A DNA stretch of 46,785 nucleotides, taken from the NCBI GenBank assembly GCA_029337695.3, contig GCA_029337695.3_4851.1; one strand, 5' to 3'. The DNA comes from a phage. The notes under the pieces were generated by a model, which saw nothing but the letters and a program-made list of their open reading frames with translations, searched no databases and was not told the DNA's origin. A program made the position numbers and the translations under genes. Positions 3,901 through 34,460 of the stretch are shown in pieces. Within the stretch, counting starts at the first letter, position 1. Each line of letters begins with the position of its first letter.

Positions 3901-4091
3901 TTCTTGTCGCCACTTTTAACCAATGCCCAAACAAGTGCTGCAACCCACCCAATAAAGCTCCATCCGACAAGAATATTCAATACACAGATTGCGGTCGTAT
4001 TTGTGTGCTTTCTTTGCAATGCCACAAATGACGGGAGAAGATAAACAAATACAACCAATCCAGCAAAAAGCAACAAAATAACAACATCCAT
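3897..4091 (-). CDS. superinfection immunity (Imm-like) small membrane protein
   Basis: 64 aa with two hydrophobic segments; LLPSFVALQRKHTNTTAICVLNILVGWSFIGWVAALVWAL resembles the Imm superinfection-immunity family signature. Confidence 0.6.
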   Translation of the reverse strand: MDVVILLLFAGLVVFVYLLPSFVALQRKHTNTTAICVLNILVGWSFIGWVAALVWALVKSGDKK

Positions 4092-4149
4092 AATTCACCT
4101 CAGTCATATCTCGTTTAGATGACTTGAATCTACATCACCACCTCGCAGG

Positions 4150-4175
4150 TGTCAACACCACTGAGATGATATAAT
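4150..4175 (+). promoter_or_regulatory. putative promoter with extended -10 (TGATATAAT)
   Basis: TGTCAACACC...TGATATAAT block identical to 2757-2776, preceded by AATCTACATCACC at 4128-4140. Confidence 0.5.
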
Positions 4176-4195
4176 CAACATCAGTCAAATTCAGG

Positions 4196-4912
4196 ATGCA
4201 AAACATGAGCAATCGCACGCCACTAACAGAAATCGGGGAGATGCGCATCTCACTGGCTGATAAGAGTTTTTTCTTTAAGCCATCATTCCGTGCCATGAAT
4301 GAAATCGGCACACCAAAAGAAATTGTCGAGGTGTACGCCAGACTCAATGGCATTGATTATGTTGCGCCATTGCAGCACGTCGAATACCTGCCATTTGGCG
4401 CGCAGATGCAGGTCATGAAGACCATCAGTAAACCTGTGTATGGTCGCCATGTGCTGAGCGCGGCCTATATTGTCATGCAGTCATGCTGTGAAGATGATAT
4501 TTCTGTGCTGATTGGTGGGTGGAAGCCAACACCGCGCGGCGTGCGATACGTACCGGGCATCATGCCAGTGAGCGACATTATTATTATTGCGCGCAATCTG
4601 ATGCAGCACGGCATCATCGGCAAGTCACCACTCAAAGTGCCTGAGCGCCTGGAAGAGCAAGGCAAGAAAACCACAAACGAGTTTCATGCGTCGCAATACA
4701 TCATCTCAGCACGCACGCATTTCGACATGACGCGAGATGAGGCCGAAAACCTGTCCATGACAGAGTTTCAGATGATGATTAAGAATAAATATCCAGAGCC
4801 GAAAGGGTTAACGAAAGAAGAGCGCGCGGCAGAGTACGATCAGGCTAAAGCAGACCGTGAGCGCATGAAGGCACTGGCTGAACGCAAAGCGAAAAAAGCG
4901 AGGAATACATAA
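4196..4912 (+). CDS. putative tail assembly chaperone
   Basis: 238-aa ORF between major tail protein and tape measure; basic C-terminus; no separate frameshift ORF apparent. Confidence 0.45.
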   Translation: MQNMSNRTPLTEIGEMRISLADKSFFFKPSFRAMNEIGTPKEIVEVYARLNGIDYVAPLQHVEYLPFGAQMQVMKTISKPVYGRHVLSAAYIVMQSCCEDDISVLIGGWKPTPRGVRYVPGIMPVSDIIIIARNLMQHGIIGKSPLKVPERLEEQGKKTTNEFHASQYIISARTHFDMTRDEAENLSMTEFQMMIKNKYPEPKGLTKEERAAEYDQAKADRERMKALAERKAKKARNT

Positions 4913-7289
4913 TGGCTGAAGAAGTCGGCGGAATTGTCTATGAAGTCGGGATGGATGTTAAAGGCCTGAAAGCTGGCGCGACAACAGCCAATAAGACTTT
5001 AGATGACCTTGAATCATCAACCAACAAAACCACAAGCGCCCTTGGCAAGCTGGATAAAAACGCCAGAAATGCTGGCAGCGGAATGAAAAATGCTGGCGGC
5101 GCAGCTTCAGGGCTAAAAACCAGCCTGTCGATGCTGGCTGGCGCAATATCCGTGTCACTGATTATCGAATGGGGAAAGCGATTCCTTGAGGTTGCAGATA
5201 ACATGACGCAGCTTCAGGCAAGGATTGCTCGCCTGTCAACTGACGCAAAAACCGCGAACGAAACATTCAGCTCACTGGCAAATATCGCCTCAACCACTGG
5301 CGCAAGTCTCAGCGACACCACGAAGCTGTGGGAAACATTGACGTCATCACTGAAAGAGGCTGGCGCGACAAATGCGCAGATTCTTAACCTTACAGATACC
5401 CTGCAAAAAATAGGTCGAATTGGCGGGTCATCAACCGAAGAAATGGCGAATGCATTACGTCAGTTCGGTCAGTCAATAGCATCTGGCACAATCCGCGCAG
5501 AAGAGTTCAACTCCATCCTTGAGCAGATGCCTGAACTTGCACGCCAGATAGCCGCTGGGCTTGGCATTTCAATGGGTGAACTTCGGGCCAGAATGCTTGA
5601 CGGAAAATTGACGGCAGAAGATGCACTAAATGCCATTCAGGACAGGACAAGCGTCGTTAATGCTGAGTTCGCAAAGCTACCGCGCTCTATATCTCAGGCG
5701 ACTGGCAGTCTTGAAACATCATTTGCAAAAATGATAGCAAGCATAAACGAAGCAACTGGAGCCAGTTCTACCTTTGTTTCAGTTATTGACTCTATTACCT
5801 CAGCAATCAACAGGCTAACTGGTCAGACCATAGGTGCGGCAGAGGTTATTTCTGATTTGACGTCAACTGCCGAAATGTTCAGTCGCAGAGCGAGAACTTG
5901 GTCATGGGTCGGCATTGACGGATGGGCGGCACAAAATCAGGCAATAGCGGCGGTAGCAAATCAGGCTGCAACTTTGGTATCAGACATGGATGCTGTCACC
6001 AAATCGACAGGGGAGGCAGCAAAGGCGCAAGCGCACTTGACAGTGCCAAAAGCAGCAGAGAAAGAGAAAAAGAAAAAAGCAACAGGCAAAAGCGCCGAAG
6101 AACGACAGGCTGAGTCAGTTGCTGAAAAGCTGGAGAAATTACGCCAGCAAACCATGCTCAATGCCACATCTACCAGCGAACTATCCCGCGAGCAAGCAAT
6201 TCTCAACGCGCAGCAATCGCTTGGCAAAGCTGCCACTCAGGAGCAAATAAAACTTGCTGGCGAGTACGCTGCGAAGATTTGGGACCAGAAGAATGCACTG
6301 AAGGAGCAGGCAGAAGCGGAGAAGGAAAAGCAGCGCATAGAAAAATCATATCAGGGGTTGCGCGCTATTGCGTCACCAACGACTGGCATTGACAGTGAAT
6401 ACCAGCAACGCATGGCTGACCTTGATGCCTACGCCGCAGCATATCCGCAGAAAATTACGGAGATTGAGCAGACTCGCGCAGCAATTGAAGCACAATACCG
6501 CCAGCAGCGAATGGACGCCATGTGGGCTGAGTGGCAGCAACAAAGCCTAGGTGCGCAACTGTTCGGTACCGCTCTTGATTCAGCAATGAGTACGGCATCA
6601 AACAGCATCACCGGATTGCTGACAGGCACAATGAGCGTTCAGGATGCCATGCGCAGTCTCGGCTCTACGGTGCTGAACTCTCTGGTAAACAGTTTCGTCG
6701 AGATGGGCGTGCAGTGGGTAAAATCTGCCGTTATGGGACAGACTGCACAGGTTGCGGCTACGGCAACCACAACGGCTGCGCAAACGGCAGGGCTGGCAAC
6801 AACAACAGCAGCATCGACGGCGGCAGCAGCCACCACCACGGCGGCATGGACTCCAGCGGCAATCGTGGCATCAATCGGTTCATTCGGTGGTGCGGCCGCA
6901 ATTGGTGTAGGCGCTGTTCTCGGGGCGCTGGCAATGGGTGTCGCTGGAAAGCGAAAAAATGGCGGCTCAGTTAGTGCCGGAAGTATGTACGAAGTTGGCG
7001 AGGGAAACGCACCAGAAATATTCCAGGCCAGCACAGGCAGGCAATATATGATACCTGGCAATTCAGGTAAGGTTATCAGCAACAAAGACATTACCGGAAG
7101 TGGCAGTGGCTTGATTATAAATAATAATGTTTATAATAGTTCAAGCGGAGCAACAGCAACTACCAGCGCCAGAGATAATGGTGACGGCAGCGTGACAATT
7201 GAGACGATTGTGAGTGATATTTCGGAAAATGGCCCAATAGGGCAAGCCATTTCAAGAAACTACAATACCAACAGGAGAGCAACCGAATA

Positions 7290-11130: not shown

Positions 11131-12966
11131 ATGGCTACCATACCAACCAATAAACCAATTCCGTCAGAAGACCCGCGCGACCTGAAATTTAACGCCGGTA
11201 AAATTGACGAAGTTGTCAACTCTGATGCACACTACTACACCGACCGCTTCGGGGTGCGCAGATGGACGATTGCAGGATTTCAGTATACGGCAGAAGAAGC
11301 TATCCGTAATTATGGCTACATCACAATGGACAGTTTTGAAGATGGAGCGACACTGACGCTTCCCAATCAGACACTGCGTTATGAAGCAAATGGAGAATAT
11401 TATCGCTGGGATGGTGTGTTCCCGAAGGTTGTTCCAGCCGATTCCACTCCAGGAACAACTGGAGGAATTGGAAGTGGTGCGTGGGTAAGTGTGGGTGATG
11501 CGGCATTAAGAACACAGCTAAATACATTGGGATTAAATTCCTCTCTCGGCTCGAATGGAAATGCTATCTGGGGAAAGGGAGCGTTCGTTAGTAACAGTTA
11601 TGCAAAAAATAATGCCTTTTTCGGTGTTGATGCTGGTTCCTCAATAACCGGAAGCTCATCTGACGAAGCCATCGGAGCCGAGAATACGGGGTTGGGCCGC
11701 CGCGCTGGCGTTAACCTAACGTCTGGGCAGCGCAATGTACTGGTTGGTCATGAAGCGGGCGCATTGCTAACCACAGGTAGCTATAACGTTTATATTTATG
11801 CGCAAAGCTCTTCTTATGCCAATTATAAGACCGGTAGCTATAACGTAGTAATTGGATATAACGCAGGAAAGCTCCTTACATCTGGCGATCGCAACGTATC
11901 AGTGGGTACGGACGCAGGTTCGGCTACGACGACTGGTCGTGACAACGTCGCCGTAGGGCATGCTGCAATGCAAAACAACTCATCGGGTGGCGGAAATACT
12001 TATCTTGGCGCATTCGCAGGAACTGAAACTGGCTCTGGCGGAAACAACCTTGCGGCAGGTCGATCTGCTTTATTCCGTAATACTGACGGCGCTGGCAACG
12101 TTGCGTTAGGACGAGAGGCTGCATTAGGTGTATCGGGTACAGGTGCCTCTCCAAATAATATTGTTGCCATTGGTTATCAGGCTGGCTGGTCGCAGAACGG
12201 GTTAAATGGTGTTGTATTTTGCGGCATGCAGTCTGGCTATAAAGCAACAGTAATGAACGATACCGTGCTGCTCGGCAGGGCGTCAGGCTTTAATCTTACA
12301 ACTGGCAGTAATAACGTGTTTGTAGGCGCAGCAACGGGCGACAGCGAAACGACAGGCAGTCAGCTTGTTTATCTCGGCCACCAGTCGGGGCGATTCCTTA
12401 TAGACGGAACACCCGCCACGGGGAAATTAAACTGTGTATCCATTGGATATCAATCCCGTGTTGGTGGTAACCATGAAGTACAACTGGGCAACTCATCACA
12501 AACAGTTTACGTATATGGAACCGTACAGACTCGCTCTGATGAGCGAGACAAGGCAGACAAGCGAGAAATTGACGCTAATCTCGCTGTTTCTTTTGTTCGC
12601 GGAATTACGCCATATTTATATAAATGGGATTATCGTGACGATTATATTGAAGAATATGATGTAAAAGTCGGAGACGATGAAAATGGCAATCCTGTTTATG
12701 AAACCAGAGTTCGACATCTCGATAAGGATGGAAGCAAAAAAAGAACGCGTGACCACGCAGGATTCCTGGCTCAGCAGGTAAAAGAATTACTGGACCGACT
12801 TGGAATTGACTGCGGTATATATCAGGACCATTTAGTTAACGATGGTTGTGATGTGAAGACCCTTGCCTATGAGCAGGCGATACCTTTCATCACAAAAGCT
12901 ATGGACGTTGCTTTTTCTCGCCTCGACAACATTGAAGAACGACTTGGGAAACTTGAGAATCAATAA
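11131..12966 (+). CDS. tail fibre with C-terminal S74 intramolecular chaperone (autoproteolytic) domain
   Basis: 611 aa; central Gly/Ala-rich beta-helix-like repeats; C-terminal TRSDERDKADKREID has the Ser...Lys dyad spacing of peptidase S74 chaperone domains. Confidence 0.8.
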   Translation: MATIPTNKPIPSEDPRDLKFNAGKIDEVVNSDAHYYTDRFGVRRWTIAGFQYTAEEAIRNYGYITMDSFEDGATLTLPNQTLRYEANGEYYRWDGVFPKVVPADSTPGTTGGIGSGAWVSVGDAALRTQLNTLGLNSSLGSNGNAIWGKGAFVSNSYAKNNAFFGVDAGSSITGSSSDEAIGAENTGLGRRAGVNLTSGQRNVLVGHEAGALLTTGSYNVYIYAQSSSYANYKTGSYNVVIGYNAGKLLTSGDRNVSVGTDAGSATTTGRDNVAVGHAAMQNNSSGGGNTYLGAFAGTETGSGGNNLAAGRSALFRNTDGAGNVALGREAALGVSGTGASPNNIVAIGYQAGWSQNGLNGVVFCGMQSGYKATVMNDTVLLGRASGFNLTTGSNNVFVGAATGDSETTGSQLVYLGHQSGRFLIDGTPATGKLNCVSIGYQSRVGGNHEVQLGNSSQTVYVYGTVQTRSDERDKADKREIDANLAVSFVRGITPYLYKWDYRDDYIEEYDVKVGDDENGNPVYETRVRHLDKDGSKKRTRDHAGFLAQQVKELLDRLGIDCGIYQDHLVNDGCDVKTLAYEQAIPFITKAMDVAFSRLDNIEERLGKLENQ

Positions 12967-13058
12967 TCATCCTCAGCATCTTTCAACGCTGACCACATAA
13001 CGACAGAAATAAGTGCAATGGCGGCAAGGATGCCGGCTATCAACAGTGCTGTAAACAT
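12960..13058 (-). CDS. small hydrophobic membrane peptide (32 aa), candidate SOS-regulated toxin-like peptide
   Basis: MFTALLIAGILAAIALISVVMWSALKDAEDDY: single TM helix with acidic tail; AGGAGA Shine-Dalgarno 5 nt upstream; convergent with the tail fibre; near-consensus LexA box about 90 bp upstream. Confidence 0.45.
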   Translation of the reverse strand: MFTALLIAGILAAIALISVVMWSALKDAEDDY

Positions 13059-13146
13059 ACGCTCTCCTGATGCTAACCTTATCAATTAAAGGTAGTGCAT
13101 GGATATGACAGTTGCATTGCACCTTGATCTGCATCGCCTTTAAAAC

Positions 13147-13166
13147 TACTGTATATAAAAACAGTA
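13147..13166. promoter_or_regulatory. near-consensus LexA (SOS) box
   Basis: TACTGTATATAAAAACAGTA matches the E. coli LexA consensus TACTGTATATATATACAGTA at 18 of 20 positions with intact CTGT-N8-ACAG. Confidence 0.65.
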
Positions 13167-13228
13167 AAAAGGAGTGCAGATCATGCTATGCTTTGGCGGG
13201 ATAGCTTACTTCTACAGAGGGTATTAAT

Positions 13229-13453
13229 ATGTTACTGACTACAAATGAAAAAGCTTTTCTCAAGATGCTGACTGTTTCCGAAGGAACCAGCACTAGCAAG
13301 TACACCAAAAATAACGGTTACGATGTAATTGTTAATGGCATTGGTGGTGAACCAAAGACCTTTACTGACTACAGCAAGCACCCCAATGTGCTGGTTACTG
13401 TAAACAACAAAGGTCTTAAGTCTACCGCTGCTGGGGCATACCAGATTTTGTAG
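13229..13453 (+). pseudogene. truncated lambda R-like lytic transglycosylase (N-terminal ~70 aa only)
   Basis: KAFLKMLTVSEGT...GYDVIVNG...FTDYSKHP...LKSTAAGAYQIL parallels the lambda R N-terminus block by block and then hits TAG where R continues about 90 more residues. Confidence 0.55.
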
Positions 13454-13461
13454 CCCATGAC

Positions 13462-14049
13462 GTGTATTTAAACGGAAGTTCTGGAAAGGACGTTATTGTG
13501 GAGTCCGTCGCATCGCAATCTGCAACGATAGCTACCACAAACTTATCTCTGAGTGGCAACTTAACAAGAGGGAGGGTATTTAATACGCCGACAGGGAATA
13601 AATTAATGGCTATCACATTTGACTCAGGTAGCCATGATTTTTCTGGTAGCGGCACCGTTAACGGTTCGACTGTATCTGACGGACTTCACGCCGCTACATG
13701 TACCGAATTTTCATTCCCTGGCGCTGGTTTGTTCGAGATGGTAGCTTCAAGAACGACAATAACATCATGGAGATGGTACGTGTGGGGAGTTAACTCACGC
13801 CTACAATCTGGCTCGGCGGACATTAGTATAACGTCAGGTATTACCATGGGTAGTGTTTACACAAAGCCGGGGGAGTGGATTAGCACTTTCGGTGTAGGAA
13901 AGGCATCTGCCACTGGCACTGTAGCGCTATACGTTTCCACAGGAGGAGGTTCGGGAGCTACGGTTAGATTCAGTGACTTTTTCATCGCTGAGTTTACGAC
14001 GCAAGCTCAGGCTTTAGCTTTCGCCAATTCAAGGATGTCGTTATCATAA
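13462..14049 (+). CDS. hypothetical Ser/Gly/Thr-rich protein
   Basis: 195-aa ORF with GTG start and no clear RBS, different frame from the R fragment; could be a domain remnant. Confidence 0.3.
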   Translation: MYLNGSSGKDVIVESVASQSATIATTNLSLSGNLTRGRVFNTPTGNKLMAITFDSGSHDFSGSGTVNGSTVSDGLHAATCTEFSFPGAGLFEMVASRTTITSWRWYVWGVNSRLQSGSADISITSGITMGSVYTKPGEWISTFGVGKASATGTVALYVSTGGGSGATVRFSDFFIAEFTTQAQALAFANSRMSLS

Positions 14050-14080
14050 AAAACAACCCCGCTTCGGCGGGGTTAGTTTC
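14048..14080. terminator. bidirectional rho-independent terminator
   Basis: AACCCCGC-ttcg-GCGGGGTT hairpin flanked by A and T runs between convergent genes. Confidence 0.75.
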
Positions 14081-14084
14081 ATCA

Positions 14085-14594
14085 TCAGAAGGGAATATCG
14101 TCTTCGAAGTCCATCGGCGGCTCATTTACTCCTTGTGTGCTTTGCTGTTTTGGTGGCTGCTGCTGTTGTTGATTTGTTACACATCCGCCTTGAGGTTGTT
14201 GGCCTGATTGCTGGCGTGGTTGTTGCTGACCAGAATCATCACGCTTACCACCAAGCATCTGCATGACTCCGCCCATCTGTGGGATAACAATCTCAGTGGT
14301 ATATCTGTCTACGCCGTTGCTGTCAGTCCACTTACGAGTGCGTAGCTGGCCTTCTATATAAACCTGAGAACCTTTGCGAAGGTATTCTCCTGCAACTTCC
14401 GCAAGTTTCCCGAATATTACCACGCGATGCCATTCAGTCTGTTCTTTCTTTTCTCCTGTTTGCTTGTCTTTCCACTGCTCAGATGTTGCAACAGAAAGGT
14501 TGGCAATTGAAGAGCCTGATGCTGAATATTTAACTTCAGGGTCGTTACCAACTCGACCAAGGATTATGCACTTATTAATACCAATCGAAGACAT
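14085..14594 (-). CDS. ssb: single-stranded DNA-binding protein
   Basis: OB-fold-like N-terminus, Gln/Pro/Gly-rich linker and acidic C-terminal tail ending DDIPF. Confidence 0.85.
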
Positions 14595-15112
14595 TACTTG
14601 AATCTCCCGTTTTTATCTCTTAATCTGCCATTATGATTCTCTGTGGCGTGTAATGATGCGTGCTCTGACTTCGTCATAAGCATTAGGTTACTTGGATGGT
14701 TGTTTGTTTTATCATGGTCTATATGATGAACGCATTCATTGTGAAACAACCTCCTCCCAATAATGCCTTCCATAACTACGACATGCTCTCCTCTTCCTTT
14801 GTTTTCACCCATAGTTATCTCGACATAACCATTCGGTTTTACAGAGCGACCCTTGCCAACTCCTTTCTTTGATTTTGATATATTTTGCTTCCATTCTTCA
14901 GTAAACTTTCGTTTTTTACCCCTAAGTCCTGAACCAAGTCTTCCCTCTGCGGCAGCAATTCTTATTGCATCTCCTCTGCTTCTCAATATTCCGGCTTTCT
15001 TAAATCTAAACCTCAATGTTGACATGGCTATTCCTGTTTCATTGGAGATTTGAGGGATGCTCATGCCAGACAAATACATATCAAACTCATTCATATGCAC
15101 CTCCTTGTGCAA
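14594..15112 (-). CDS. HNH homing endonuclease with N-terminal HTH
   Basis: C-terminal [27 protein letters not shown]; inserted between ssb and erf. Confidence 0.75.
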
Positions 15113-22940: not shown

Positions 22941-23299
22941 TTTTACCTAATTTACCGTATATTTATTGGTCAGTTTTTTGCGTAACTAATTGATTTATAT
23001 GGTTTTACCGGTTTTACCGGAGCTCTAAGGAGTATTTTCATCATTGAGAGTAGTAGTATATTAATTGGTCTAATTTTTAAATAACCCTAATAAAATCAAT
23101 ATATTAATATAAGAAAGTAACTTACTTACTTATATAGGATTTACCGGGTAAAACCGGTAACTCCTCCGCAGCCCGCGTCATTACTGGATTGATTTTTACC
23201 ACCTGTAGGTAAATACAGTAGTTTTTAAGTCAGGATTGTTTTTGTAAGATGTTGATTACCGGTACTTTATTTGAAAAACCGGGATTTACCGGGTTTTTG
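22941..23299. repeat. AT-rich iteron array (TTTACCGG-type), candidate origin or regulatory region
   Basis: About 600 bp without ORFs; copies at 22941-22960, tandem GTTTTACCGG x2 at 23001-23020, inverted TTACCGG/CCGGTAA at 23141-23160, palindrome 23195-23215, TTACCGGTA at 23255-23264, ACCGGG repeats at 23275-23299. Confidence 0.6.
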
Positions 23300-34019: not shown

Positions 34020-34460
34020 ATGAAACTATCGCAACGCGGCAAAGAGCTAATCAAGTCGTTTGAAGGGCTGGAGCTACGCGCTTATCCTGACCCCGCTACA
34101 GGTGGCGCTCCGTGGACAGCTGGATATGGTCACACTGGTGCAGACGTGAAGCCCGGAATGACGGTAACACAGGAAATGGCTAACGCATGGCTGGATAGTG
34201 ACGTGAAGAAGTTTGAGGATGGCGTATCGGCGCTGTTAACCGCGCCAACCACTCAGTCGCAATTCGATGCAATGGTGTCACTGGCATACAATATTGGTCT
34301 TGGCAATTTCCGCAAATCAACCCTGCTACGTAAGCATAACGAGAAATGCTACACCTGTGCCGCCAGCCAGTTCCTCGCATGGAATCGCGCTGCTGGTAAA
34401 GTTATGAATGGCCTGACACGGAGGCGTAACGCAGAGCGCGCTATGTATATGGGGCAATGA
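34020..34460 (+). CDS. endolysin (lysozyme-like, GH24-type)
   Basis: 146 aa; N-terminal LSQRGKELIKSFEGLELRAYPDPATGG...TAGYGHTG pattern of phage lysozymes. Confidence 0.75.
   Translation: MKLSQRGKELIKSFEGLELRAYPDPATGGAPWTAGYGHTGADVKPGMTVTQEMANAWLDSDVKKFEDGVSALLTAPTTQSQFDAMVSLAYNIGLGNFRKSTLLRKHNEKCYTCAASQFLAWNRAAGKVMNGLTRRRNAERAMYMGQ

Follow-up and report, generated by a model that had tools for sequence, protein, structure and literature searches.

A umuDC-type LexA box behind a siphophage tail-fibre gene as a probable relic of receptor-binding-protein cassette exchange

The 46,785-nucleotide (nt) phage contig GCA_029337695.3_4851.1 (NCBI GenBank assembly GCA_029337695.3; this whole stretch of DNA is hereafter called the window) carries a near-consensus LexA box in a segment of about 1.1 kb directly behind its tail-fibre gene, and the origin of this segment is the subject of the present analysis. 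The segment is made up of four foreign pieces, namely a gene for a 32-amino-acid (aa) membrane peptide, an SOS promoter, an endolysin fragment and a tailspike fragment (Table 1). For the greater part of its length, the window shares ~90% identity with the virulent siphophages ZCEC08, ASO78B, Bas77-81 and IME207 (the last classified in the genus Shuimuvirus); in these relatives a terminator comes directly after the tail-fibre gene, with ssb next on the opposite strand, and no counterpart of the segment is present. Compared with IME207, ASO78B, ZCEC08 and HC6, homology is lost ~400 nt into the tail-fibre gene and is back at 14046-14055, and the LexA-box segment therefore lies within a replaced region. 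An original prediction, made from the sequence alone, had described the segment as horizontally acquired, and this was confirmed by the lack of an equivalent in the relatives and by the tracing of each piece to a foreign source.

Table 1. Features between the start of the tail-fibre gene and the native terminator (positions in the window)
Feature	Position	Strand	Basis
Tail-fibre gene, 611 aa	11131..12966	+	Pfam: Tail_spike_N domain and C-terminal S74 chaperone domain
Receptor-binding-protein cassette	11401..14051	+	Distal 521 tail-fibre codons and all segment pieces; shared with SU10-like podophages
32-aa single-helix membrane peptide gene, intact, unannotated, MFTALLIAGILAAIALISVVMWSALKDAEDDY	12960..13058	-	Open reading frame; 12 distinct related sequences
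Conserved 65-bp spacer, peptide ATG to -35 of SOS promoter	13059..13123	.	Homologous, 63-65 bp, in L029, L049, L075 and L077
umuDC-type SOS promoter and operator	13124..13185	+	Homology to E. coli prophage, LAU1 and phiSD1 elements; K-12 umuDC architecture
-35 TTGATC	13124-13129	+	Part of umuDC-type promoter, 17-bp spacer to -10
-10 TACTGT	13147-13152	+	Overlaps left half of LexA box
Shine-Dalgarno AGGAG	13170-13174	+	Downstream of LexA box
Orphan start codon ATG	13183-13185	+	Homology to prophage element ends just after
14-codon stub reading frame MLCFGGIAYFYRGY	13183..13227	+	Left where the first gene of the moron was cut off; read from sequence
Lambda-R-type endolysin 5' fragment, 73 codons (74-aa reading frame)	13229..13453	+	Cbunavirus endolysin homology, phrog_90
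Tailspike 3' remnant, last 200 codons	13449..14049	+	LM33_P1 gp17 / phiEc3 homology
Terminator hairpin native to the phage group, followed by ssb (-)	14054..14075	.	Terminator scan, minus strand

The right part of the segment consists of two truncated genes joined to each other. The stretch 13228-13447 is 89-91% identical at the nucleotide level to the first 73 endolysin codons of the N4-like Cbunavirus phages Nepra, CB1, Kc283 and EK8, with 5-6 of the 73 aligned residues differing from the Nepra and Kc283 endolysins, and in Cbunavirus phages the endolysin gene lies directly 3' of the tailspike gene and its terminator. The corresponding 74-aa open reading frame (ORF) belongs to the endolysin family phrog_90 (E = 2.4e-19) and retains the N-terminal catalytic region with the SEGT motif of the lambda R-type Cbunavirus enzyme, but it lacks the full-length fold (~158 aa), ending after 74 codons at a recombination junction. 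The earlier view of this piece as a lysozyme remnant was thus correct in substance, as it consists of 73 Cbunavirus endolysin codons cut at 13448/13449, whereas the in-frame TAG, which had been taken for a sign of decay, is made of tailspike-derived bases and was created by the junction itself, which is blunt. The working endolysin of the window is the unrelated gene at 34020-34460, a separate and intact ORF, as had been predicted, after which come two further ORFs.

Beyond the junction, the DNA is 94% identical in nucleotides and 96% identical in amino acids to residues 527-726 of the 726-residue gp17 of the T7-like coliphage LM33_P1 (Kayfunavirus), and 91% identical in amino acids to the tailspike of phiEc3 (Kagunavirus). 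In the 736-position phrog_27367 profile it aligns with positions 542-736 (E = 9e-108), so that the C-terminal domain is present, while the N-terminal virion anchor and the central domain are absent, the DNA upstream being endolysin-derived. Homology between the LM33_P1 and phiEc3 tailspikes continues for ~300 residues on the upstream side of the break in the window, which marks this break as a truncation and rules out a domain boundary. Both plus-strand ORFs of the original prediction (74 and 195 aa) do exist, but the second (13462-14049), which had been read as a GTG-initiated gene, is the open part of this tailspike tail end, and no Shine-Dalgarno sequence precedes the GTG at 13462. Neither fragment contains internal stops or frameshifts, and the ratio of non-synonymous to synonymous differences (pN/pS) was 0.10-0.12 for the endolysin fragment and 0.14 for the tailspike remnant, values that fit a recent truncation of genes that would have been functional until then.

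Upstream of these fragments lies the LexA box TACTGTATATAAAAACAGTA (13147-13166), which matches the consensus TACTGTATATATATACAGTA, a CTGT-N8-ACAG palindrome, at 18 of 20 positions. It is the sole site with three or fewer mismatches to the 20-bp consensus in the 46.8 kb (no match in 100 shuffles), and its 20-mer is identical to the operator upstream of umuD in Escherichia coli K-12; a UV-induction study lists the identical 20-mer upstream of both umuD and sbmC (PMC3009722). The near-consensus box named in the original prediction is hence unique in the window and the same as two known operators. The resemblance to umuDC extends to the promoter, since the -35 TTGATC, the 17-bp spacer and the -10 TACTGT overlapping the left half-box are conserved across the homologues and agree with the K-12 layout, which argues that the promoter fires rightward, on the plus strand. 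A consensus promoter scan does not call it, because the -10 matches at only three of six positions. Given an operator and promoter layout identical to those of umuDC, LexA very probably binds the box and represses the rightward promoter. Unlike umuDC, the window has another spacer sequence and another Shine-Dalgarno sequence, and an orphan ATG with a 14-codon stub stands where umuD and umuC would follow. In this layout the membrane peptide lies behind the promoter, which reads into gene fragments. For the ~40 nt that separate the orphan ATG from the endolysin ATG, BLAST gave no match at 'distant' sensitivity, and an exact search with the 26-mer 13213-13238 retrieved nothing from viral contigs. 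A second CTGT-N8-ACAG motif (CTGTAGGTAAATACAG) occurs at 23203-23218; two or more such motifs were present in 9 of 100 shuffles, and the occurrence is hence not unusual.

The promoter could be traced to a moron of temperate phages. The homologous region covers about 13105-13186 of the window; of 5426 complete E. coli genomes, 40 carry the element, and so do several phages. Seven of its contexts were examined (three P22-like or related E. coli prophages, Enterobacter phage LAU1, a Klebsiella prophage, Shigella phage phiSD1 and Sashavirus 536P12), in all of which the element sits at the distal phage end; it directly follows the last tail gene in four (LAU1, phiSD1, 536P12 and the Klebsiella prophage), and it is separated from the tailspike gene of the E. 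coli prophages by small ORFs or by a glycosyltransferase gene. Where the phage is temperate, the element stands in front of a 79-aa gene (phrog_3893) and a 105-aa 'UmuD-like' gene (phrog_3469), and a pattern scan of IMG/VR yielded at least 120 contigs (L025-L144) with the element, mostly before a 79-aa gene of the phrog_3893 type. A very common LexA-controlled prophage operon thus stands beside tail-fibre genes in most contexts inspected. The window shares with this SOS moron, for which HumD of P1 may be compared, a homologous promoter, operator, Shine-Dalgarno sequence and start codon as well as the position just after the tail-fibre gene, but neither cargo gene is present: homology stops right after the ATG, as it does in phiSD1, whose ATG directly precedes a TAA. 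As the phage of the window is virulent, there is no lysogen for the moron to serve. The two-gene operon (79-aa phrog_3893 and ~105-aa phrog_3469 genes) was located at 3060-3616 of contig L007, 5060-5616 of L002 and 557-880 of L012. Significant matches of the phrog_3469 protein to UmuD'/HumD models do not extend beyond its first ~21 residues (GFPSPAxDYVE), an S24 peptidase domain could not be detected, and this 'UmuD-like' protein may not be a polymerase V subunit.

On the other side of the promoter lies the peptide gene, which is, as read from the DNA, the only intact gene of the segment. It converges with the tail-fibre gene and shares the final 7 nt of the latter, and its Shine-Dalgarno sequence (AGGAGA, 13063-13068) and the 88 bp between its ATG and the LexA box agree with the original description of a strongly preceded 32-aa transmembrane peptide some 90 bp from the box. 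An alignment of 12 distinct sequences of 30-32 aa, all ending in DDY or NDY, defines a family with the consensus MxxALLIxGILAV...SAMQDxxDDY and the invariant residues M1, G9, S23, A24, D27, D31 and Y32; besides the window, members come from EK8 (L001, 2289-2384, minus strand) and from contigs L011-L013, L029, L049, L071, L075, L077, L087, L123 and L141. The window peptide has the size, the one hydrophobic helix, the invariant residues and the place adjoining a tail-fibre gene that characterize this family, whose members usually converge with the tail-fibre gene and diverge from a promoter under LexA control. No match to Pfam, PHROG or NCBIfam reached threshold, be it to a toxin or to any other family, and a literature search for the peptide motifs returned no paper. 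A Shine-Dalgarno-like sequence precedes the ATG in all copies read, and pN/pS in close pairs was 0-0.41, a figure behind which stand very few substitutions. The gene is probably real and encodes a small membrane protein.

The distribution of the peptide points to prophages. In the phage collection tblastn found it in EK8 only, where the homologue has the tailspike region on one side and the endolysin gene on the other. A degenerate DNA pattern for the C-terminus of the peptide matched three prophage-like viral contigs of IMG/VR (a looser pattern gave the same three) and nothing in the genome or metagenome collections; all three have the order tail fibre, peptide on the opposite strand, LexA-type box and SOS-moron genes, with a UmuD'-like gene after the box in two of them and a degenerate box and truncated 79-aa-type gene in L011. 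A search beside the LexA element in the 120 contigs added eight peptides, four of them with a spacer homologous to that of the window. The cassette of the L012 type had no match in complete E. coli genomes and, among phages, matched EK8 alone. Peptide and LexA promoter are thus conserved divergent neighbours in prophage-like contigs, and their adjacency in the window was therefore inherited and is not accidental. In EK8 itself, the annotated start of 'lysozyme R' (L001, 2323-2889) precedes by ~90 nt the start that other Cbunavirus phages have in common (2413), and it is probably misannotated, because the extension overlaps the peptide gene in antisense.

The pieces do not travel separately. 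Three 72-74-kb contigs from unrelated samples (L019, at 4008-6658, L021 and L022) carry the 2651-bp block 11401-14051 at 99.5-99.6% identity, all with SU10_portal Pfam matches and one also with SU10_adaptor; the block therefore moves as a single receptor-binding-protein (RBP) cassette, which is also 98% identical in L023 and L024. The exact 32-aa peptide is present on seven assembled contigs, among which L020 (46.8 kb) has the length of the window and, in the 5.5 kb compared, 100% identity with it, and therefore represents the same phage. The left edge of the cassette is the YRWDG motif of the Tail_spike_N domain. Toward the right edge, the window and the SU10-like copy show one difference up to 14033 and then differ at 5 of 13 positions (14034-14046), where the window is identical to LM33_P1, and the crossover was mapped to 13966-14033, inside the tailspike remnant. 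Because the window switches from SU10-like to LM33_P1-like sequence near the end of the remnant, this pattern suggests that the last exchange between this siphophage lineage and SU10-like podophages used the remnant as its right homology arm.

In known mosaic exchange of tail-fibre and tailspike genes, such as that of LM33_P1 gp17 and the Kagunavirus tailspikes, one tailspike C-terminus likewise occurs in podophages and siphophages, boundaries likewise lie at the conserved Tail_spike_N motif and flanking DNA is likewise dragged along. The window departs from the usual mosaics in stacking several scars, among them a regulatory element and a lysis-gene fragment, that have moved as a 2.65-kb unit. 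Only the first ~400 nt of the tail-fibre gene are common to the window and its relatives; the best matches of the distal fibre (11520-12966) were an Aeromonas phage protein (37% amino acid identity) and SPO1-like Bacillus phage proteins (~34%), and a search of the phage collection found no close relative. EK8 was considered as the direct donor of the fibre and ruled out, since the fibre and the EK8 tailspike have only Tail_spike_N in common.

Comparable leftovers were found in other phages. The LexA element stands right after the tailspike gene in phiSD1 (L010, 3001-3078), where CTGT-N9-ACAG breaks the half-site spacing, and between the tail fibre and the terminator in Sashavirus 536P12 (L017, 2501-2563), where the right half-site and the Shine-Dalgarno sequence are broken; in these other virulent phages the element, to judge by its broken sites, decays. 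Truncated N-termini of the Cbunavirus endolysin type also occur as copies of 83 aa (P0002; L145/L146, 4001-4252) and 97 aa (P0003), and as the 83-aa copy lies 3' of an unrelated 1054-aa tail-protein gene, this type of scar recurs. After gp17 of LM33_P1 (L005, 3103-3150), we found a decayed terminator and the last ssb codons of the phage group of the window, which suggests that the LM33_P1 tailspike came from a phage of that siphophage group.

Taken together, we consider it probable (about 0.8) that the segment is the trailing scar of a mobile RBP cassette carrying an orphan SOS promoter, with no SOS-controlled phage function. The provenance of the pieces, their junctions, the loss of the cargo, the orientation of the promoter (by homology) and the shared block are established by sequence comparison. 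Each swap of a tail fibre or tailspike would have brought along donor DNA lying just downstream, and the leftovers would now stand lined up. The peptide gene and the divergent umuDC-type promoter would be the left half of a moron whose normal place, in temperate phages, is directly behind the tail-fibre gene, its operon (the 79-aa protein and the short UmuD'-like protein of the prophages) having presumably been cut immediately after the ATG; the endolysin piece would be the start of the gene located next after the tailspike gene of N4-like Cbunavirus phages, and the last piece would be the end of the replaced tailspike gene. If derepressed, the promoter would transcribe only the 14-codon stub and the two gene fragments, up to the native hairpin, so that no SOS-dependent function would be expected from it, and the earlier proposal that host SOS status controls an accessory function of the phage was not borne out. 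Transcription from the tail-fibre gene, which would be antisense to the peptide gene, probably runs through the entire segment, because a terminator scan found just one weak terminator-like hairpin on the plus strand at 12966-14050.

Several observations weigh against this interpretation. Prophages consistently have the peptide next to the LexA promoter, which makes co-regulation conceivable; the endolysin and tailspike fragments are free of internal stops and frameshifts; no full-length tailspike of the LM33_P1 type was found in the relatives, HC6 having a different RBP; and the box is intact, with at most one difference in the stretch from the peptide to the endolysin fragment across L019 and L021-L024. 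Copies at 98-99.6% identity are too recent, however, for conservation to separate selection from lack of time. The stacked scars fit the established mosaicism of tail-fibre genes; new are the multi-step record, the 2.65-kb cassette shared by a siphophage and SU10-like podophages, and the unannotated peptide family. If the segment is such a scar, a virulent phage can carry an intact regulatory site as a mere passenger and not as a control element, and the locus would be an unusually readable record of RBP movement among siphophages, T7-like, N4-like and SU10-like podophages and prophages, in which the dragged flanking DNA points to likely donors and bears on the evolution and engineering of host range.

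The alternative that survives best is that LexA at 13147-13166 also represses a divergent promoter of the 32-aa peptide, which would act on SOS induction in the manner of TisB or DinQ, or in exclusion or lysis timing. Like the window peptide, TisB and DinQ are hydrophobic peptides of ~30 aa near a LexA box, a likeness already drawn in the original prediction, but there is no sequence similarity between them, the acidic DDY tail (DDY or NDY in the family) is atypical for such peptides and unlike TisB or DinQ, and no resemblance to a toxin family was detected. A search of the region against Rfam, bearing on the antisense or small-RNA partner that had been suggested, returned no RNA family apart from a weak match on the terminator hairpin. 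The peptide, spacer and LexA promoter do form a conserved divergent unit in prophage-like contigs, but the conserved -35 and -10 belong to the opposite strand, EK8 has the peptide without any box, and 8 of the 11 prophage examples were found by searching beside the box, so that the association is partly one of ascertainment. A perfect TATAAT abuts the box on the peptide strand in L012 and L013, but it is absent from the window, where a consensus scan and a relaxed scan found no sigma-70-like promoter on that strand between the box and the ATG. The ORF and a Shine-Dalgarno-like sequence in all copies read, together with the pN/pS of 0-0.41 in close pairs, count in favour of this alternative. 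With the box serving the opposite strand, the toxin-like arrangement could not be upheld, and we regard SOS control of the peptide as unlikely.

Also unlikely, in our judgement, is a portable and still functional SOS-responsive module, in which the peptide and the divergent umuDC-type LexA promoter travel with RBP genes between temperate and virulent phages and the box is maintained for the control that LexA exerts on the level or timing of the peptide; the peptide might then serve superinfection exclusion or the timing of lysis. In a related variant, the stacked fragments would persist as homology arms for the exchange of RBP cassettes across phage families.

It is very improbable that the endolysin and tailspike fragments yield an SOS-controlled product of their own, either as a frameshift fusion or as an O-antigen-binding C-terminal domain made by reinitiation at the GTG at 13462. 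Both fragments are open and are retained in L019, L021, L022 and L023, and their reading frames overlap at 13420-13453, but no slippery site or Shine-Dalgarno sequence is visible there and the illegitimate join falls in the middle of a region conserved between LM33_P1 and phiEc3; a frameshift fusion was rejected on the blunt junction and the missing slippery site. The endolysin piece makes up less than half of the ~158-aa enzyme, everything N-terminal of LM33_P1 residue 527 is missing, including the part for virion attachment, and the low pN/pS of 0.10-0.14 would be given equally by a recent truncation of functional genes. That the palindrome is a chance LexA-like match of no SOS ancestry, for which nothing but the AT-rich intergenic composition speaks, is refuted by ~65 bp of flanking promoter homology to a widespread prophage element, by the umuDC layout and by the shuffles, from which no chance match is expected.

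On the far side of the native terminator, an HNH endonuclease gene (14594-15112, minus strand) that resembles a mobile homing endonuclease lies between ssb and an Erf-type recombinase gene. The annotation of ASO78B contains none, and ZCEC08 has an HNH gene at the same place.

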